A DNA stretch of 64,000 bases from assembly GCA_964347035.1 (NCBI GenBank), contig CAYFXE010000001.1, positions 48,228-112,227 of the forward strand, in the 5' to 3' direction. The stretch comes from an uncultured Eubacteriales bacterium. GTDB taxonomy: Bacteria; Acidobacteriota; Aminicenantia; Aminicenantales; Aminicenantaceae. Positions 2,797-60,706 of the stretch are shown here, piece after piece. Position numbers and translations under genes: made by a program. The notes under the pieces are model-generated. The model was not told the origin of the DNA and made no database searches. It saw only the letters and a program-made list of their open reading frames with translations. Within the stretch, counting starts at the first letter, position 1. Every line of letters starts with the position of its first letter.

Positions 2797-4302
2797 ATGA
2801 AGAGAAAGATAGGAATTTGCTTTAAACTTGTTCTTTTCCTGACCGTCATCCTGATTCTCACCTCCTCCCTACTCGCTCAGACTTTCGAGGCGATCAAAAA
2901 CAAAATCAAGGTCCATACTTTGAAGAACGGGATGAAATTCATCGTGCTCGAACGACATGAAGCACCGGTCGTCTCTTTTCATGTCTATGCCGATGTCGGA
3001 AGCGCCAATGAGACTTATGGGATAACCGGGATTTCCCATCTTCTGGAACACATGGCTTTCAAAGGCACCAAGATTGTGGGGACAAAAGACTACGAAGCAG
3101 AGATGAAAGTGCTCGAAGAGCTGGACACCTTGTATGACCAGATAAAGAGGGAAGAGGACCAGGTCAAGCCTGATGCCCAGAAGCTCGAGGAGATGAAGAC
3201 AAGATTTGAGGAATTGCGCCTGAAGGCTAAAGAGTTCGTGGCGACCAATGAATTTATCGATCTGATGAGAAGACAAGGAGATCAACGAATCAACGCCTAC
3301 ACCAGCAATGATGCCACCCAATACATAGACAGCCTGCCTTCGAACAAACTGGAATACTGGATGGCCATGACTTCGGATCGCTTTCTCAATCCTGTTTTTC
3401 GGGAATTCTACAAGGAAAGAGATGTTGTCATGGAAGAGAGAAGACTCGGGTTAGAGACGAGGCCTATGGGAAAACTCATAGAAGATTTCTTTGCTACGGC
3501 TTTTAAAGCCCATCCCTATCACCATACGGTCATCGGTCATATGTCAGACTTGAGAAAAATTACCCGCCAGGATGTCGAGGATTATTTCAAGACATACTAT
3601 GGACCGAGCAATTTAACAGTGGGGATAGTCGGTGATGTTGCCGCCGACGAGGTCTTTAAACTGGCTGACATCTATTTTGAGCGGATTCCGAGCGGTCCGA
3701 AACCAGAGCCTGTCCGGACAGAAGAACCCGAGCAATGGGGAGAAAGGCATGTCACGGTTACGGCCAGATCCCAGCCCATCCTCGTCGTTGGGTATCACCG
3801 TCCGAACGCTCGCCACCAAGATAATGCTGCCCTGGAGGCCTTAGCCAATATCATAGGTCAGGGGCGGTCCTCCAGGTTGTATCAGGTGATGGTCAAGGAG
3901 AAGAAAGTCGCCATCCAAACCGGGAGTTTCAACGGATTTCCAGGGGATAAGTTTCCCAATCTCATTGCCTTTTATGCGGTCTCTTCCTGGGGGCATAAAT
4001 CGGATGAATGCCTGGAAGTTATAGACGCGGAGATAGAAAAGATAAAGAAAGAGCCTGTCACACCCGAGGAACTCACAAAGTTCAAGAGAAGTGCTATCAA
4101 GAACCTGTTGAACCAGATGATATCCAATTCCCGTATGGCTGCGTTACTCACCTATGCCGAGGTCGTTCTTGGAGGTTTGGACGAGGCGTTTGATCAGATC
4201 AAGCAGATCGAAGCCATCACTGCCGAAGATGTCATGAGAGTGGCTAATACCTATTTGGTCAAGAAGAAGAGGACGGTCGGTGAGATTATTCCTGGAAAAT
4301 GA
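2797..4302 (+). CDS. M16 family zinc peptidase (insulinase-like, catalytic subunit), secreted
   Basis: Inverted zinc motif HLLEHMAFKG (HxxEH). Signal peptide follows the Met at 2797, which is preceded by an aggaggg RBS; the ORF-track start at 2728 looks like a spurious extension. Confidence 0.8.
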   Translation: MKRKIGICFKLVLFLTVILILTSSLLAQTFEAIKNKIKVHTLKNGMKFIVLERHEAPVVSFHVYADVGSANETYGITGISHLLEHMAFKGTKIVGTKDYEAEMKVLEELDTLYDQIKREEDQVKPDAQKLEEMKTRFEELRLKAKEFVATNEFIDLMRRQGDQRINAYTSNDATQYIDSLPSNKLEYWMAMTSDRFLNPVFREFYKERDVVMEERRLGLETRPMGKLIEDFFATAFKAHPYHHTVIGHMSDLRKITRQDVEDYFKTYYGPSNLTVGIVGDVAADEVFKLADIYFERIPSGPKPEPVRTEEPEQWGERHVTVTARSQPILVVGYHRPNARHQDNAALEALANIIGQGRSSRLYQVMVKEKKVAIQTGSFNGFPGDKFPNLIAFYAVSSWGHKSDECLEVIDAEIEKIKKEPVTPEELTKFKRSAIKNLLNQMISNSRMAALLTYAEVVLGGLDEAFDQIKQIEAITAEDVMRVANTYLVKKKRTVGEIIPGK

Positions 4303-8304: not shown

Positions 8305-9984
8305 ATGAAAAAATTATTAAGATGCAGGACAACATTCATTTTTCTCTTTATTTTCATTGTTTTTTCTGCAGTTTTGGCTGATGCGAAGATAGATAAAGTC
8401 GATAAGCTCTTTGCTCAGTGGGATAAACCAGATTCGCCCGGATGCGCTTTAGCCGTCATCAAGGATGGACGCATCATCTACAAAAAGGGCTACGGCTCAG
8501 CTAACCTGGAACATGACATTCAGATCACCCCCGAGAGCGTTTTTTATATCGGCTCGGTTTCTAAGCAGTTCGTGGCTTTCTGCATTGCTCTGTTAGTCCA
8601 GAAAGGGGAGCTCTCGTTAGATGATGACATCCGTAAATATGTTCCCGAACTCCCCGATTATGGGACACCGATAACCATCCGCCATCTCATCTATCACACC
8701 AGCGGCCTTCGTGATTACCTCGAGTTAGAAGGGATCGCTGGCATTCCGATTGGGGCGTATCATGAACAGGATGTCATTGACCTGATTGCACGACAGAAGG
8801 AGTTGAATTTCAAGCCAGGTGAACAATATATGTATAGCAATTCGGGGTATTTTCTCCTGGCTGTGATCGTGAAAAAAGCCACTGGCAAATCTCTTCGCCA
8901 ATTCGCAGACGAGAATATTTTCAAACCCCTGGGAATGAAAAACTCCCATTTTCACGATGATTACCGAAGACTTATAAAGAACAGAGCTGCTGGCTATTTC
9001 CCGGCCGGGAAAGGGAAATTCCGCAACTTTGTCTCCACCTTTGACTGCGTCGGATCCGGTGGTTTGTTCACTTCGGTGGAGGATCTTTATCGCTGGGACC
9101 AAAACTTCTACAATAAAAAAGTCGGAGGCAAGGAAGTGTTTGATCTGATGTATACTCAGGGAATACTGAACAGCGGCCAGAAGCTCGATTATGCCTTTGC
9201 GCTCGTCGTAGGCGATTATAAGGGATTAACAACGGTTGGGCATGGAGGTGCTTTGGGAGGATATAGATCTGCGCTTCTCCGCTTCCCAGAACAACAATTT
9301 TCCGTGATCTGTCTTTCCAACCTGAGCAGCTTTAACCCGATGGGCATAGCCCGGAAAATCGCGGATATTTATTTAGACGACCGATTTAAGCAGGAATCGA
9401 AGTCCAAAGCCGGTTTGAAAGGTGAACCTCAATATATCAAACTCCCTGAGAAAAAACTCAAGGAGAAGGTGGGAGCTTATATCGACCGTAAAACAGACGA
9501 TATTAGGATCATCTCATTCAGGGATGGCCGGTTAGTCATAGAAGCTCTAGTTAGGGCGTTTCCTTTGAAACCTGTCAGCGAGACAGAATTCCATGTTGTG
9601 GAGGCAGCCATCAAGGCCGCGATCAAATTTGAAAGGCAGAAGGGAGACAAGCCGTTGCTATTGCACGTCTATCCTGAAGGTAATAAACCCGAGACCTACG
9701 AAGCGTTCGCGTGGGTTAAACCTTCGCTTGAACAACTCAAAGAATATGAAGGAGATTATTTCAGCGAGGAACTTCAGGTGACATTCAAAATTGCTATCAA
9801 AAAGGCAAAACTGCGTTTTATCCATCGAAACGCCCCCGTTCCTCCACTCCGCCCCACACTTCAGGACAAATTCACGGTCAGCCGTTTCAAGATCCGGTTC
9901 TCCCGTGACGAGGAAAAGAAAATCACAGGCTTCAGGCTGGATGCGGGACGGGTCAAAAATCTCCGCTTCGATAAGGAATCGTAA
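8305..9984 (+). CDS. Beta-lactamase-fold serine hydrolase (peptidase S12 / PBP-like) with a ~200 aa C-terminal extension; secreted
   Basis: Signal peptide. SxxK active-site motif (GSVSKQF), YxN-like motif (YSNSGY) and HGG (GHGGALGG). The in-frame ATG at 8305 follows agaggag; the 5' extension from 8257 overlaps the promoter -10 TGcTTATAAT. Confidence 0.8.
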   Translation: MKKLLRCRTTFIFLFIFIVFSAVLADAKIDKVDKLFAQWDKPDSPGCALAVIKDGRIIYKKGYGSANLEHDIQITPESVFYIGSVSKQFVAFCIALLVQKGELSLDDDIRKYVPELPDYGTPITIRHLIYHTSGLRDYLELEGIAGIPIGAYHEQDVIDLIARQKELNFKPGEQYMYSNSGYFLLAVIVKKATGKSLRQFADENIFKPLGMKNSHFHDDYRRLIKNRAAGYFPAGKGKFRNFVSTFDCVGSGGLFTSVEDLYRWDQNFYNKKVGGKEVFDLMYTQGILNSGQKLDYAFALVVGDYKGLTTVGHGGALGGYRSALLRFPEQQFSVICLSNLSSFNPMGIARKIADIYLDDRFKQESKSKAGLKGEPQYIKLPEKKLKEKVGAYIDRKTDDIRIISFRDGRLVIEALVRAFPLKPVSETEFHVVEAAIKAAIKFERQKGDKPLLLHVYPEGNKPETYEAFAWVKPSLEQLKEYEGDYFSEELQVTFKIAIKKAKLRFIHRNAPVPPLRPTLQDKFTVSRFKIRFSRDEEKKITGFRLDAGRVKNLRFDKES

Positions 9985-16920: not shown

Positions 16921-18192
16921 CTATTTTTGTCTTGAATATTTTTTCACGAAACGCTTTGCATTAGCTTCGTAGACCTGCATCTTTTTCTCATCTTTGGTGA
17001 CCTTTCTGACAAATATCCCCTGTTTACGATCGATGAGTCCGCCTCGGGCATTGATGATATCCATTGCTTGGGCAAGCCATGTCTGGATGACCGGAAAGTC
17101 GGGATGATGCCGATCGTTCTTATCGATTGGGTATATAATTTTTTTAGCCGCCCAGTAGTCGAGGGCTACCGGATCCTGACTGGCGGCTATCTGCCGAGCA
17201 TGGAAGGTGCTGCTTGCCGGGAATCCAGAGAGCGAGCGATGGGAAACCCAAATGGCGTCCATGATGTTTAAAACCGGTGTGCAGACCGAGACCATCATCT
17301 TACCGCAGGTTTCTCCAAGGCCATTGTAATGACGGAAGGAGCTGTAGCCATCAGACATGGAGAGAATGCCGTAGAAATGTTTAAGGGATGCCGTTATCTC
17401 CGAGCCGCCAGTATCATGGTGCTTAAGCACAGGGACGTTGATCAACTTGAGATTCTTGGCGTAGCTGGCACCTTTCCAGATGCCCCTCTGCAATTCTATC
17501 CTGTGTCCGCCTTGGGTTGTGAAGCAGGGATAGGAAACGTTTTCGTATCTGCGGTATCCATCTGTCACATGGTTGTCTTCAGCGATAAACCGGCTTCTTA
17601 TGGGGTCGAGAAGATAGCAAGAAACGCGAGGATCCCTGAAGATGTTGTCGACGAGATAGGTAAAGGAGTGGGATTCATCAAGCGCATTGGCGTGAACATC
17701 ATTGTCAGTATAATGTTCTCTTGTATCACAATTCAGGCTGCCTCGGCCTTGGCCGTTCTCAAAAATCACGACCTCGCCTGTGAAGATATCAGGGTGATCC
17801 AGAATTCTCTGGATTAGACCCCGGATGAGGTCGCTGTTGGTACAGCCTCTGTATTTCCACTGGGCATTAACCTTGATCAGAACCACGTCCTCAGGCCCGA
17901 TCATGCCTTTCCGGCTCCCAAGAATGGTTTTTTTATCAGAACGGTAAAATTTTAGTCCCTGTTCACTCATCAGGTGGAGAAGGCAGTCGATTCCAGCATG
18001 ATAATTTGCTTGGTCATCGTGATAAAAAGGCTGCTGAGGTGTCTTTTTCACCCAAAAAAGCTCATTTTTTTTGTTTATCCCTTTGGTGTCGAGGAACACG
18101 GACGGAATGAGAGAAGCGGCGAAGGCTCCGCCGGCGACCGTCTTCATGAATTCTCGCCGGTTGTACCTTCGATTTTCTTTAAAATTATTCAT
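16921..18192 (-). CDS. Tat-secreted DUF362-like protein
   Basis: Twin-arginine signal RREFMKTVAGGAFAASL. The core VVLIKVNAQW...HPDIFTGEVVIFENGQGRG resembles the DUF362 pattern. Confidence 0.45.
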   Translation of the reverse strand: MNNFKENRRYNRREFMKTVAGGAFAASLIPSVFLDTKGINKKNELFWVKKTPQQPFYHDDQANYHAGIDCLLHLMSEQGLKFYRSDKKTILGSRKGMIGPEDVVLIKVNAQWKYRGCTNSDLIRGLIQRILDHPDIFTGEVVIFENGQGRGSLNCDTREHYTDNDVHANALDESHSFTYLVDNIFRDPRVSCYLLDPIRSRFIAEDNHVTDGYRRYENVSYPCFTTQGGHRIELQRGIWKGASYAKNLKLINVPVLKHHDTGGSEITASLKHFYGILSMSDGYSSFRHYNGLGETCGKMMVSVCTPVLNIMDAIWVSHRSLSGFPASSTFHARQIAASQDPVALDYWAAKKIIYPIDKNDRHHPDFPVIQTWLAQAMDIINARGGLIDRKQGIFVRKVTKDEKKMQVYEANAKRFVKKYSRQK

Positions 18193-18249
18193 GGTAAATT
18201 ATGTGACATAGTAATTTAAGAAATTGTTTTTCTCAAGTCAATAGATATT

Positions 18250-18340
18250 GCTGCTGGGGTCAGGCCTTATCCCAAGGTTTTGTACTCGGGTAAAAGTAGA
18301 GACAGAGCGCTTCTGGACGACAAGGCCTGACCCCAGCAGC
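18250..18340. repeat. ~91 bp intergenic element with perfect 19 bp terminal inverted repeats (copy A), MITE/REP-like
   Basis: gctgctggggtcaggcctt ...53 bp... aaggcctgaccccagcagc. A second copy at 50770..50858 carries the internal segment in reverse-complement orientation. Confidence 0.75.
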
Positions 18341-18368
18341 AACCGAGAAGGTCAGATGGATTTTTGAA

Positions 18369-19445
18369 TTATAAATACTTATCTTTGTCTTTTTTTCTGA
18401 GGATCTCCACGATATCCTTGACTTTCTGGTCCTGGTCCTTATGACAAATGAGCAGGGCGTCTTCGGTGTCGACCACGACCAGATCCTTAACCCCGACAAG
18501 GGCAGTCAGCTTGCGGGGATTATGGAGGAGGCAGTTTTCTGCGTCCAGAGCAATATTTGCTCCTCTCAAGGCATTCTCTTTATCGTCCTGAGGCCATATG
18601 TCTCTTAAAGAAGACCAGGCCCCTACATCTGACCAGCAGAAATCCCCCACGCCCATCCATACATCTGGAGCCTTTTCCATAAGGGCATAATCGATAGAAA
18701 TTGAGGGGATATCGTCAAAAATAGCCTGGATATTAGCAGCGTCATCTTTTTCAAGGGCGCTCAGAATCCTCTGCCAATACAGGAACATCTCAGGAGCATA
18801 TTGTTCAAGCTTTCGAGCAAAGACAGAAACCTGCCAGATAAACATCCCCGAGTTCCAATAATAATTCCCTTTGTTCAGGAAGGATTTAGCTTGTTCGAGC
18901 TCTGGTTTTTCTTTAAACTCCAGAACCTTGAAGAACTTCTCTTCCCTGATTCGTGTCGGGCTTTCCTCAGAAAACTGAATATAACCGTATCCTGTGGCCG
19001 GATGAGAAGGGGGAATGCCAAAGACAATCAGGTTTTCGCTGTCCGAGGCGGCAGAAGCTCCAGCTTCAAGCTTTATGAGGAACACATCAGCTTCCCTGAT
19101 GAGATGATCGGCGGGGAGGGCAGCTACCACAGCCTCTGGATTCTGATGGTGAATCGAGGCTGTCGCCAGGATTAACGAGGGAGCCGTGTTTTTTCCCTGA
19201 GGCTCAACCAAAAGGTTGGATTCAGGGATTTCTGGCAGGAGCTTGTGTCTGGCCTGGGTTTGCTCCTCGTTGGCGCTGGTATAGATTCTAGAATAAGGAA
19301 TGGATGGGAGAATTCGATGGACGGTTTCCTCGATCATCGTTTTGTCGCTGATAATCGGGAGAAATTGTTTTGGTTTCTTCTTTCGGCTCAAAGGCCAAAA
19401 TCGAGTTCCAGTTCCCCCTGCCATGATCACTGCCCGAAAGTCCAT
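18369..19445 (-). CDS. manC: Mannose-1-phosphate guanylyltransferase
   Basis: MDFRAVIMAGGTGTRFWPLSRKKKPKQF nucleotidyltransferase N-terminus and overall GDP-mannose pyrophosphorylase architecture. Confidence 0.8.
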   Translation of the reverse strand: MDFRAVIMAGGTGTRFWPLSRKKKPKQFLPIISDKTMIEETVHRILPSIPYSRIYTSANEEQTQARHKLLPEIPESNLLVEPQGKNTAPSLILATASIHHQNPEAVVAALPADHLIREADVFLIKLEAGASAASDSENLIVFGIPPSHPATGYGYIQFSEESPTRIREEKFFKVLEFKEKPELEQAKSFLNKGNYYWNSGMFIWQVSVFARKLEQYAPEMFLYWQRILSALEKDDAANIQAIFDDIPSISIDYALMEKAPDVWMGVGDFCWSDVGAWSSLRDIWPQDDKENALRGANIALDAENCLLHNPRKLTALVGVKDLVVVDTEDALLICHKDQDQKVKDIVEILRKKDKDKYL

Positions 19446-50667: not shown

Positions 50668-50769
50668 AGCCCGAATATTTTAGAAAAGGATTATCAAGAG
50701 TAAAATATACGAAAATAGCTTTGCTTCCTTCAGATTTTTAACGCCATTCCCTCATCGTCTATCTCGGCT

Positions 50770-50858
50770 GCTGCTGGGGTCAGGCCTTGTCGTCCGGAAG
50801 CGCTGTGTCTCTGCCTTTACCCGAGTACAAAACTTTGGGATAAGGCCTGACCCCAGCT
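50770..50858. repeat. Copy B of the ~90 bp TIR element (inverted internal orientation relative to copy A)
   Basis: gctgctggggtcaggcctt ... aaggcctgaccccagc. The internal 53 bp is roughly the reverse complement of copy A's internal segment. Confidence 0.75.
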
Positions 50859-50983
50859 CAGACATACTCGCAGGTCGACTTCGTCGACTACCCTCGAAGG
50901 CCGAAATCTGAAGGCTGGGTTAGGTTGGGTCGGGGTTTTCAATGTCGCTTCATCTATTTCCGTATATTTTACTACATAAAATT

Positions 50984-51511
50984 TTAAGGCTGATTTTTTC
51001 GTTTTAATCTGTTCAAAGCATAGCAGCTGAATCCCTTATCCGGCCAGGCCACGTGGAAGCTCTGCTCCAGATCATCGGGCTTGATGATTTTAAATATCAG
51101 CTTGGCTTTCGTTCCTGGTGGAGCATTCTCGATATGCTCAGTGACGAAGGCGAGAGTTTTTCCGTTATCAGAAATGGTATCGAGGATATACGTGTTAACA
51201 AACCCTTCCACATAGAATCCCCTAAGGACGAATTTATTCCTGATCTGATCGTAACTGAACAGCCCCAGATCCTCATGAACCTCCCCCTCAGGCCTCTTCT
51301 CGCTGGGCTCGAAGACAGCCTTGGTGTTCATCTGGAGGAATTTCTTGTTTAGGACGAACCGGTATTCTTGATTCACGACTGATCCTTGACCATGGCCCTC
51401 CCATCGCCCTTCTAAGAATTCAAGAGGCTCCCAGACATCCTTTTTTTTCTCTGTTTGGGCAATGATCATGGCAGGCAATAAAAAAAGGATGACAACGAGT
51501 TTATGGCTCAT
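50984..51511 (-). CDS. Secreted hypothetical protein (lipocalin/DUF-like)
   Basis: Signal peptide; 175 aa; no catalytic motif recognised. Confidence 0.4.
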   Translation of the reverse strand: MSHKLVVILFLLPAMIIAQTEKKKDVWEPLEFLEGRWEGHGQGSVVNQEYRFVLNKKFLQMNTKAVFEPSEKRPEGEVHEDLGLFSYDQIRNKFVLRGFYVEGFVNTYILDTISDNGKTLAFVTEHIENAPPGTKAKLIFKIIKPDDLEQSFHVAWPDKGFSCYALNRLKRKNQP

Positions 51512-52859: not shown

Positions 52860-53597
52860 ATGGAACATCGCATTTCAAAGAAATGGAATCCACGCCTACA
52901 CGATTCATCCGGCCACAGGCTGAGGCTCAGGGAGAAATTTTTATTAGGGGGGCTCAAAGGGTTTTTGGATTATGAAATCATCGAACTGCTGTTGACACTG
53001 GGGACTCCACGAAGAGACTGCAAGAGGCAAGCGAAAGAAGCGTTGAGAAGATTCAAGACATTGAGAAGTGTTCTGGAGGCGGAGCCAGAGAACCTTCAGG
53101 ACATCAAAGGCATAGGTCCTCAAAATATATTCGGGATTAAGCTCGTTCAAGAGGTCTCCCGGCGTTTCCTAAAAGATCGTATGATGAGCCGGCCTGTCTG
53201 TCAAACCTCTAAGGACGTCTTTGAATATCTCTATCACGCCCTGAGAGACGCAAAGAGAGAAAAATTTAAGGTCATGTTTCTGGATGCCAAGAACAGGATC
53301 ATCGAGGAGAACACTTTTTTCGAGGGGACAGTCGATTCGAGCGCTGTCTTTCCCCGAGAAATCATGAAAGCAGCCCTAAAGCACGATGCCTCTTCCCTGA
53401 TCTTCGTCCACAATCATCCGACTGGAGACCCTCAGCCTTCCTCGAGTGACAAGGAGATTACGAGGGAGTTGGTGTGGGCCGCCTCTCTTTTGCAGATCCG
53501 AGTCTTGGATCACATCATCATCGGGAATAACTGCTATTTCAGTTTCGCCGATCATGGCTTGATTGAGGATTATGCTTTGGTGTTCCAGAAGAATTAA
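52860..53597 (+). CDS. radC: RadC-like JAB/MPN domain protein
   Basis: HhH-like N-terminus (GHRLRLREKF...YEIIELLLTLG) and JAMM motif HNHPTGDPQPSSSD. Confidence 0.8.
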   Translation: MEHRISKKWNPRLHDSSGHRLRLREKFLLGGLKGFLDYEIIELLLTLGTPRRDCKRQAKEALRRFKTLRSVLEAEPENLQDIKGIGPQNIFGIKLVQEVSRRFLKDRMMSRPVCQTSKDVFEYLYHALRDAKREKFKVMFLDAKNRIIEENTFFEGTVDSSAVFPREIMKAALKHDASSLIFVHNHPTGDPQPSSSDKEITRELVWAASLLQIRVLDHIIIGNNCYFSFADHGLIEDYALVFQKN

Positions 53598-53600
53598 GAT

Positions 53601-53727
53601 TCAGTTATCAGTTCACAGATATCAGTTCCCAGTTATCAGTACACAGTTGAAGAAGAGATTCTTATCTTGATAAGAATCCCTTTTTTGCTGACAACTGACA
53701 ACTGGATACTGGCAACTGATAACTGAA
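53601..53727. repeat. Palindromic array: 3 direct 12-15 bp units (cagWtatcagtt) + central hairpin + 3 inverted units
   Basis: Left arm units at 53603, 53617 and 53632. The right arm (53692..53725) holds their reverse complements (aactgataactg etc.), flanking the palindrome gattcttatcttgataagaatc. Confidence 0.6.
53657..53686 (+). terminator. Intrinsic terminator downstream of radC
   Basis: Perfect 10 bp stem gattcttatc/gataagaatc with a 2 nt loop, followed by ccTTTTTT. Confidence 0.6.
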
Positions 53728-53779
53728 TTATTGTCAAATCTAATTTCCGAGGGTAAACTCTTAGCGAGAGGAGGCCACT

Positions 53780-59014: not shown

Positions 59015-60706
59015 ATGATGATGAAGAAAAGAATATTTATAGTCAGTTTTGGGCTTTTGATCTTCGTCTGTGTCACGCTCGCTTACGGAGATGTATTGAC
59101 GGATAAAGTCGATAAGCTTTTTTCTAGGTGGGACAAGCCTGATTCTCCAGGTTGCGCTCTTGGAATAATAAAGAATGGTCAACTCATATACAGCCGCGGT
59201 TATGGGATGGCCAATTTGGAACATGGTATTCCGATAACCTCAAAATCCGTTTTCCGGATTGGTTCCACCTCCAAACAATTCACGGCCACGTGTATGGCTC
59301 TCCTGGAAGAGGAGGGGAAACTCTCACTGGAGGATGATATTCGGAAATACATTCCTGAAATGCCGGACTACGGACGTCCGATCACGATTCGACACCTACT
59401 CCTTCACACGAGTGGCATAAGGGATTATCTCACCCTTATGTCTTTGGCCGGCGAGCGGGGGGATGATTTTTATGTCGATGGCGAGGTTTTGGATCTTATA
59501 ACCAGACAGAAAGAATTGAATTTCAAGACGGGCGATGAATACCTTTACAGCAATTCCGGCTATTTTCTCTTGTCTGTGATTGTCAAGAAAGTCACGGGAA
59601 AGTCTATGCAGGTTTATGCCGATGAGAAGATATTTAAACCTCTGAAAATGAGTCATACCCATTTTCACGACGACCATACGCTGGTTGTCAAGAACCGAGC
59701 AGCAGGATACTCGCCTCTAAAAAAGAAAGGATTTAGGATTGATATGACCACCCTGGATATGATCGGCGATGGGGGGATTTTTACCTGTGTCGATGATCTT
59801 TTGCTCTGGAATCGGAATTTTTACGATAATAAACTGGGGAAAGGAACTCAGGAGCTCATCGACATACTCCTCACGCAAGGTGTTCTGAACAACGGCGAAA
59901 AGCTCGATTATGCCCTCGGGCTTGTTGTTAGCGATCACAAAGGCTTAAAAATGGTTAGCCATGGGGGAGCCTTTGTCGGATTCAGGGCGGAGATGATTAG
60001 GTTTCCTGAGCAACGATTCTCAGTGATCGTTCTAGCCAACCTGGGCACGATCAATCCCAGTCGACTGACTAGACAGGTGGCTGATATTTATCTTGCTGAT
60101 CGTTTCAAGGTGAAGGCCGAAAAAGCCCCAATAGAAAAACCCGAGTTCGTGAAGCTCACCAAGTCTGCCCTTAAACAGAAAGAAGGGGCTTACTACAACA
60201 AAAAAAGGGATGCTGTCTGGAGAGTTTCTCTTAAAGAGGGCAAACTCATGGTAAATGCCTCCTACTTTCGATTCCCGATTTTACCGATCAGCCCGACTCG
60301 GTTTCTAGCTGTCGAGGCTCCGGCGGAGATGGAGTTGGAATTTATAAAGACATCGCCAGATGAGCCTATGGATTTGAAAGTTTACATTGAAGGGGAGGAA
60401 CCTAGGTTTTTTGAGGCATTCCAACTGGCATCGCCGACTTCCTCAGAGCTTAAGCAGTATTTAGGTGACTATTACAGCGAAGAACTTCGAGTCACATACC
60501 ATGTGGTTTTGGAGGAGGGACAACTTTTTCTCCACCACCAGAATCCTCATAAAGGTGATCCCAAAACACCTCTATTCCCGACGTTTAAGGACAGGTTTCT
60601 CCAGTATAATAATCATTTTCAGTTCTTCCGGAATGAAAAGGATGAAATCGAAGCCTTCACGATGAATGCTGGACGGGTGAGAAATATCCGGTTCGATAAG
60701 AAATAA
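59015..60706 (+). CDS. Beta-lactamase-fold serine hydrolase (S12/PBP-like) paralog with the same C-terminal extension as 8305..9984
   Basis: GSTSKQF (SxxK), YSNSGY, HGGAFVG. Long collinear similarity to the gene at 8305..9984, including the tail (...GRVRNIRFDKK versus ...GRVKNLRFDKES). Confidence 0.8.
   Translation: MMMKKRIFIVSFGLLIFVCVTLAYGDVLTDKVDKLFSRWDKPDSPGCALGIIKNGQLIYSRGYGMANLEHGIPITSKSVFRIGSTSKQFTATCMALLEEEGKLSLEDDIRKYIPEMPDYGRPITIRHLLLHTSGIRDYLTLMSLAGERGDDFYVDGEVLDLITRQKELNFKTGDEYLYSNSGYFLLSVIVKKVTGKSMQVYADEKIFKPLKMSHTHFHDDHTLVVKNRAAGYSPLKKKGFRIDMTTLDMIGDGGIFTCVDDLLLWNRNFYDNKLGKGTQELIDILLTQGVLNNGEKLDYALGLVVSDHKGLKMVSHGGAFVGFRAEMIRFPEQRFSVIVLANLGTINPSRLTRQVADIYLADRFKVKAEKAPIEKPEFVKLTKSALKQKEGAYYNKKRDAVWRVSLKEGKLMVNASYFRFPILPISPTRFLAVEAPAEMELEFIKTSPDEPMDLKVYIEGEEPRFFEAFQLASPTSSELKQYLGDYYSEELRVTYHVVLEEGQLFLHHQNPHKGDPKTPLFPTFKDRFLQYNNHFQFFRNEKDEIEAFTMNAGRVRNIRFDKK

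Follow-up and report, generated by a model that had tools for sequence, protein, structure and literature searches.

Two copies of a long hairpin repeat, here called copy A and copy B, are present in the 64,000 nucleotides of DNA analyzed (the whole stretch is referred to as the window). Both are real and non-random, and we interpret them, with a probability of roughly 0.8, as non-autonomous REP-like palindromic repeats moved in trans by a TIRYT transposase that is encoded outside the window. The element is an Aminicenantes-type addition to a known but little-studied class, the palindromic repeats associated with TIRYT and RAYT transposases.

Results

Copies A and B are one element in opposite orientation

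A blastn search and a repeat finder both aligned the two copies as a single 96-nt unit with 94% identity. The parts of the two copies are as follows.

18253..18348, plus strand: copy A, the 96-nt unit common to copy B (orientation 'O1')
18248..18271, no strand: left arm of copy A, with the 13-mer GGGGTCAGGCCTT at 18256-18268 and the outer extension TTGCTGCT, which is atypical for the family
18319..18342, no strand: right arm of copy A, with AAGGCCTGACCCC at 18322-18334
18269..18321, plus strand: interior of copy A, 53 nt, asymmetric and specific to the Aminicenantes-type subfamily (alignment with related interiors)
18341..18360, plus strand: one-sided tail AACCGAGAAGGTCAGATGGA, common to copy B and to the inner flank of a larger composite repeat
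50762..50857, minus strand: copy B, the same 96-nt unit, with 13-mers at 50776-50788 and 50842-50854, the interior at 50789-50841 and the tail at 50762-50772

In copy A the 19-mer GCTGCTGGGGTCAGGCCTT (18250-18268) is followed, after the 53-nt interior, by its exact reverse complement (18322-18340), and an inverted-repeat finder extended this stem to 24 nt with 96% complementarity (18248-18271 / 18319-18342). The left arm of copy B (50770-50788) is exact; its right arm (50842-50860) carries three mismatches, all in the three outermost bases, so that the perfect inverted repeat of copy B is 16 bp long (50773-50788 / 50842-50857). The initial annotation had assigned perfect 19-bp terminal inverted repeats to both copies, which holds for copy A and not for copy B; the core of about 53 bp that it placed between the arms is present in both. 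It had also described the cores as lying in opposite internal orientation. The asymmetric tail AGCAGCARCCGAGA outside one arm is inverted together with the element, and because the 96-nt unit aligns including this one-sided tail, the whole element is flipped between the copies and not the core alone. Sequences flanking the two copies are not direct repeats but inverted in the case of copy A and unrelated in the case of copy B.

When up to three mismatches were allowed, the 19-mer was found four times in the window, compared with 0.01 matches expected from shuffled sequences. RNA folding of the copies yielded -59 kcal/mol (z = -8.5 and -9.5), and folding as single-stranded DNA yielded about -30 kcal/mol (z = -6.8 and -7.7). 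Within a single arm (18255-18284, plus strand; 50826-50855, minus strand), GGGGT-CAGGCCTT-ATCCC can form a sub-hairpin of 6 bp with a T-rich run behind it. This feature is confined to the Aminicenantes subfamily, and it was picked out as terminator-like in antisense to the upstream genes.

The stem base is shared by about 12 phyla

Genomes, one per species, were scanned for GGGGTCAGGCCTT followed after a gap of 38-68 nt by AAGGCCTGACCCC. This exact pair of 13-mers was found in at least 113 loci from about 12 phyla, showing that the stem base is not private to this genome. The phyla comprise Desulfobacterota, Methylomirabilota, Acidobacteriota (including Aminicenantes and Thermoanaerobaculia), Elusimicrobiota, Planctomycetota / PVC, Verrucomicrobiota, Gemmatimonadota, Nitrospirota, Actinomycetota, Bacillota, Acetothermia as well as Beta- and Gammaproteobacteria; cultured carriers among the matches listed are Legionella (L. 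resiliens), Rheinheimera (sp. YQF-1) and Undibacterium (sp. Di24W). The 13-nt core is identical from plasmids of Legionella and Sporomusa to Aminicenantes and Rokubacteria. Several hairpin copies are found per assembly, and their interiors are lineage-specific and mostly lengthen the stem, by 7 bp on average. The interior of copy A aligns with those of loci L021, L036, L061, L067, L073, L079, L088 and L102, and with 20 copies of its own type from metagenomes.

As a rule the palindrome ends outward with the GGGG of the arm: among 116 family members, 74 lack any outer extension and only about 10% have a palindromic one of at least 3 bp. Arms also occur singly and in tandem. The only palindrome within a single arm is the 6-nt AGGCCT, and the units of the family measure about 64-96 nt. 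The hairpin was not detected in the viral contigs scanned (0 matches), hence there is no sign of phage carriage. A full-text literature search for 11-mers returned only unrelated human or vector sequences. Three of the loci, L036, L061 and L088, come from a MAG labelled Eubacteriales and have the hairpin, along with 20 nt or more on either side of it, in common with L102:5160-5239 from an Aminicenantes MAG; this sequence sharing indicates either a larger repeated unit or putatively mis-binned Aminicenantes contigs.

TIRYT genes are bounded by the same arms

All open reading frames of the 113 loci obtained were clustered. One family lies between hairpins in L001 and L023 (both Desulfotignum) and in L099, and its members combine a Y1_Tnp domain with Bac_DnaA_C or HTH_23. 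With the NCBIfam model for the REP-associated tyrosine transposase (NF047646) the L099 protein scores 80.5 bits (cutoff 80) and the L001 protein 67.7. The sole relative of the TIRYT proteins in the PDB is 4ER8, the TnpA_REP of E. coli, to which the HUH and YIxxNPV motifs could be aligned. While the L001, L023 and L099 proteins are 37% identical to each other, their arms are identical. A profile search retrieved at least 7,906 homologues with the same architecture, several of which were named 'REP element-mobilizing transposase RayT' by JGI.

The surroundings of nine further distinct TIRYT genes were examined, giving 12 distinct genes in all. Inverted GGGGTCAGGC(C/T)T arms are present on both sides of 11 of these (with at most 1-2 mismatches) and on one side only of the twelfth, although identity between the sampled proteins is no more than 29-37%. 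Plasmids of cultured Sporomusa termitida and Legionella adelaidensis carry two of the genes. The initial annotation had proposed to look for an insertion element with matching terminal inverted repeats; in many other genomes the arms are the terminal inverted repeats flanking TIRYT genes.

Two layouts were observed. In the first, complete hairpins stand on both sides of the gene and match in their interiors the hairpins dispersed in its own MAG (Desulfotignum, L099, L147); these dispersed hairpins include L011, L016 and L048 in the Desulfotignum MAG of L001, and L095 in the MAG of L099. In the second, the gene is flanked by single inverted arms, and L115 has arrays of them, with six tandem arms upstream and three downstream of its TIRYT gene (L115:2200-2420 and 3680-3750), which means that arm arrays can build up at the ends of the gene itself. 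One of the proteins, P0111, occurs in two unrelated contexts that share only the arm-to-arm unit. Many TIRYT genes and repeat copies are located at contig ends. Using TIRYT proteins as queries, tblastn detected no TIRYT gene in the 64-kb window and none beside the copies of the window type at 27 metagenome loci.

Element borders lack target-site duplications

In 115 elements no target-site duplication was found for k = 2-8: matches were at or near chance level, and none occurred at k = 5 at the element border. The base at position -1 is a pyrimidine in 77% and the base at +1 a purine in 78% of these elements. The missing duplications together with the Y/R border bases fit Y1-type transposition and argue against a MITE of the DDE type.

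Such a classical MITE would have arisen by deletion from a DDE-type insertion sequence, for instance a Tn3-like one with a GGGGTC start, and would be moved by cut-and-paste. The element is indeed small, non-coding and multi-copy and has terminal inverted repeats starting with GGGG, which we take to resemble the start of the Tn3 inverted repeat, GGGGTCTGAC. It also shares size, inverted ends, intergenic sites and mRNA folding potential with DDE-type MITEs such as Correia/NEMIS, RUP, ERIC and Nezha. Those, however, have target-site duplications and stem from DDE insertion sequences, neither of which applies here. Tn3 generates a 5-bp target-site duplication, the very size at which no border match was found, and has a 38-bp inverted repeat, whereas the conserved arm is only about 13 nt long. 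Moreover, the genes bounded by the arms encode Y1/HUH proteins and not DDE transposases. The DDE-type reading is thus largely refuted and we consider it very improbable; from the earlier suggestion of a MITE derived from an unseen insertion sequence, what survives is the pairing of a non-coding element with an unseen transposase gene.

Copies of the window type are multi-copy and intergenic

Further copies of the window-type subfamily were sought in related metagenomes, as had been proposed, using GGGGTCAGGCCTTATCCCAA as probe. The element proved to be multi-copy, with 27 loci in two metagenome assemblies. Together with the two window copies these loci represent 21 unique cores, and 20 window-type cores share 90.5% identity on average in pairwise comparisons. 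The right arm, which was not forced by the search pattern, diverges by 1.5% and the interior by 9.0%, the former value carrying a slight bias, as filtering removed any copy whose right arm was very degenerate. Where copy A has an internal GTAG, copy B and about half of the relatives have GCAG.

All window-type copies checked are intergenic. For 16 of them two neighboring genes could be called, and these are divergent in 8, tandem in 6 and convergent in 2 cases, so the positional bias toward gene 3' ends expected from the two window copies was not borne out.

Several loci have an unusual structure. A comparison of L142:1300-1500 with window positions 50720-50900 revealed the same composite flanks around a 79-nt arm-to-arm core in opposite orientation. 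Given this inversion with unchanged flanks on either side, the segment bounded by the two arms may flip or be re-inserted. Nested or tandem partial copies are found at L124:6860-7020 (identical to L131), L126:1760-1840 and L139:5350-5510. Among these three loci, one copy interrupts the interior of another, two half-copies are joined after GGTTTTGT in two independent cases, and one copy is nested in a different arm pair with palindromic AT-rich flanks. The arrangement of these sequences, together with the L142 inversion, hints at flipping between the arms or insertion into palindrome centers.

The element is missing at the orthologous site of the closest relative

The gene context given by the initial annotation is correct. 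Copy A lies in the spacer between a manC-like gene (18369-19445, minus strand) and the DUF362 gene that follows it (16921-18192, minus strand). Copy B is located between a peptidase C69 gene (49033-50667, plus strand) and a convergent gene for a protein of 175 amino acids (50984-51511, minus strand). The window resembles Candidatus Aminicenantes: its proteins are 65-81% identical to, and syntenic with, those of a MAG labelled Aminicenantes, and all ManC homologues carrying an organism name are from Aminicenantes.

In L153, the closest relative (ManC 86% identical), only 21 nt separate the manC stop from the DUF362 start and the arm motif is missing, compared with a spacer of 176 nt in the window. 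The arms are also absent from the manC-DUF362 site of more distant ManC relatives. Site A is therefore a presence/absence polymorphism.

18218..18368, minus strand: block present in the window and missing from the orthologous spacer of the closest relative (boundaries approximate; comparison with L153)

These data bear on whether the hairpin is mainly an RNA element of the host, acting, like the REP/BIME elements of E. coli, as a stem in 3' UTRs or between cistrons that ends transcription or stops 3'-5' exonucleases. The transcript of the upstream gene would carry the same strand of the element in both window copies, copy A begins 8 nt past the manC stop in a likely manC-DUF362 operon (the tail AACCGAGAAGGTCAGATGGA ends 8 nt from the stop codon at 18369-18371), and the element folds very stably as RNA (-47 to -59 kcal/mol). 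However, the sense strand of either upstream gene has no U-tract after the hairpin, which speaks against the terminator that had been suggested, and the lone terminator-like match is the 6-bp antisense sub-hairpin. Both strands of the element fold equally strongly, half of the window-type copies (8/16) are located between divergent genes, where 3' ends do not exist, and L153, the closest relative, lacks the element at this position. In addition, the conserved part is a DNA motif common to transposase gene ends and not a lineage-specific RNA feature. We therefore regard a primary host RNA function as improbable; the stable hairpin near the manC stop possibly has such a role as a side effect, which does not explain the family.

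The least probable of the readings considered is a structured noncoding RNA gene or cis-regulatory RNA of an undescribed family. Folding is strong and significant and the interior is conserved within the Aminicenantes subfamily, yet the element is found in both orientations in every kind of intergenic context and is absent at the orthologous site of L153. The stem base shows no covariation across lineages, since the interior is wholly replaced between lineages and the paired stem base is identical in sequence. Over the whole window no Rfam family matched at the gathering threshold; when both loci were searched at E <= 1, the best sub-threshold match was mir-129 (38.4 bits vs 48.6), and the sub-threshold matches are generic eukaryotic miRNA hairpin models. 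No Rfam family fits the hairpins; presence inside an annotated structured RNA had been named by the initial annotation as another explanation. A search for tRNAs and tmRNA in the window found none. Integron attC sites were dropped upon inspection, as the borders have no GTTRRRY / RYYYAAC core, and CRISPR was dropped because no array is present.

Copy B is the center of a larger composite palindrome

Copy B is embedded in a larger repeat that fills almost the whole convergent intergenic region (window 50675-50990).

50699..50973, no strand: larger palindromic repeat with copy B at its center (inverted repeat I11), with its own inverted ends at 50699-50718 / 50954-50973

Folding yields a nested hairpin for this composite. 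Window positions 50702-50974, without the flanking genes, are matched over 140-270 nt by eleven metagenome loci; the composite, about 245-330 bp long, is thus present in about 11 further contexts, distributed over two metagenomes. The long inverted ends of these copies read AAGCATCTTTATTTCCGTGATG..., and the repeat also has an inner GTCGACnnnGTCGAC hairpin. Having its own inverted ends and recurring in about 11 other contexts, the composite is a unit that may spread in this lineage. The spreading unit here may accordingly be the composite, possibly moved by something other than TIRYT.

Two further repeats were noted in the window. A separate long hairpin at 53599-53728 lies just past a gene ending at 53597; its arms consist of the heptad repeats (TCAGTTA)n / (CTGACAA)n and surround a terminator-like stem, which is followed by T6. 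Positions 8770-9328 and 59483-60047 are direct repeats with about 70% identity, about 50.7 kb apart, and are probably paralogous genes.

Discussion

Relation to known repeat systems

TIRYT genes and the TIRtron units were named by Di Nocera, De Gregorio and Rocco in 2013 (PMC3733652). Many TIRYT terminal inverted repeats share the motif GGGGWSAS, and the repeat families occur as singles, dimers and clusters (PMC3733652). The 8-nt motif was reported for about 26 genes, and the families were called 'moderately abundant' and occur in a few species (PMC3733652, PMC6006769). In the classification of Quentin et al. (2018), TIRYT corresponds to subclass 2.1 of TnpA_REP, with Bac_DnaA_C or HTH C-termini, and no REP-like sequences were found near subclass 2.1 genes by these authors (PMC6006769). 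The arms of both window copies read GGGGTCAG, which fits GGGGWSAS (W=T, S=C, S=G). The kind of repeat is therefore already known, and the description of the element as novel and matching no repeat family is not supported (PMC3733652; PMC6006769).

As in the published families, the arms flank Y1/HUH genes with Bac_DnaA_C or HTH_23 C-termini and occur as singles, inverted dimers and clusters; here these are represented by the two window copies, the 27 metagenome loci and the tandem or nested arrangements in L124, L126, L139 and L115. Unlike in those families, a core of 10-13 nt, GGGGTCAGGCYT, is identical over about 12 phyla with proteins that are 29-37% identical, and some lineages show a REP-like organization, with complete hairpins beside the gene as well as dispersed ones. 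A subfamily corresponding to that of Aminicenantes with its 53-nt asymmetric interior does not appear in the available portions of PMC3733652 and PMC6006769.

With the classical REP / REPIN-RAYT systems of E. coli and Pseudomonas the element shares short intergenic palindromes present many times, a Y1 transposase gene that is usually single-copy and has the same repeats in inverted orientation on both sides, the lack of target-site duplications, and the 4ER8 and NF047646 matches of the enzyme. Its grouping with TIRYT/RAYT-associated palindromes by arms and by multi-copy intergenic spread agrees with the earlier label REP-like. Differences are also apparent: the terminal GTAG (or CGTC) tag is missing here and the ends are Y|GGGG...CCCC|R. 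The REP unit of 20-40 nt is itself an imperfect palindrome, whereas the unit here comprises about 64-96 nt and the hairpin needs both arms, because a single arm is not itself a palindrome. Furthermore, the TIRYT enzyme has an extra DnaA_C-like HTH domain, and the repeat core is cross-phylum here but species-specific there. IS200/IS605 elements and their PATE-like derivatives likewise use a Y1 HUH enzyme that recognizes single-stranded DNA hairpins and does not generate target-site duplications. They have a different sub-terminal hairpin at each end and no terminal inverted repeats, whereas the ends of the element described here are inverted copies of each other.

A model for mobilization in trans

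The transposase that we propose for copies A and B would be a TIRYT, a RAYT-related Y1/HUH tyrosine transposase with a C-terminal DnaA_C-like helix-turn-helix domain, and the arms would be its terminal inverted repeats. In single-stranded DNA, for instance on the lagging-strand template, the element would fold into a long hairpin with the GGGGTCAGGCCTT / AAGGCCTGACCCC duplex at its base. A TIRYT encoded elsewhere in the genome would recognize this hairpin and cut at its borders (Y|GGGG ... CCCC|R), and no target-site duplication would arise when the element is moved or copied. According to this model, the lineage of the window would encode a TIRYT flanked by GGGGTCAGGCCTTATCC... arms. Copies would survive in intergenic DNA only, and any influence that a copy has on neighboring transcripts, as a stable hairpin at their 3' end or between cistrons, would be incidental. 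Binding, cleavage and the single-stranded DNA steps are extrapolated from TnpA_REP of E. coli and from IS200/IS605; we know of no experiment on any TIRYT.

A broader proposal combines three parts: that the GGGGTCAGGCYT hairpin base is the TIRYT recognition site in many phyla, that subclass 2.1 forms a REP/REPIN-like system in at least 12 phyla, and that elements land or flip in the apexes of palindromes. In this combination GGGGTCAGGCYT may have stayed near-invariant while the TIRYT proteins diverged to about 30% identity. The central position of copy B in a larger palindrome, the nested and self-interrupted copies of L124 and L139 and the inverted core of L142 point toward landing or flipping at apexes. 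Taken as a whole, we consider this proposal tentative and rather unlikely to hold in all its parts.

What the repeats mean for TIRYT biology

What is new here is the length of the core (10-13 nt), the breadth of phyla and the complete REP-like hairpins flanking some TIRYT genes. Of modest interest are the conservation of the 13-mer across phyla and the position of copy B inside a larger palindrome. For annotation, we advise to label such elements as transposase-associated palindromic repeats and neither as terminators nor as novel RNAs. The hairpins break short-read assemblies, and TIRYT genes and repeat copies are often found at contig ends. The 13-nt core is a ready substrate for binding and cleavage assays and offers an easy way to search uncultured phyla for these systems. 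Should the repeats be maintained vertically like REPINs, the idea of a domesticated transposase plus its repeat population would extend well beyond Proteobacteria.
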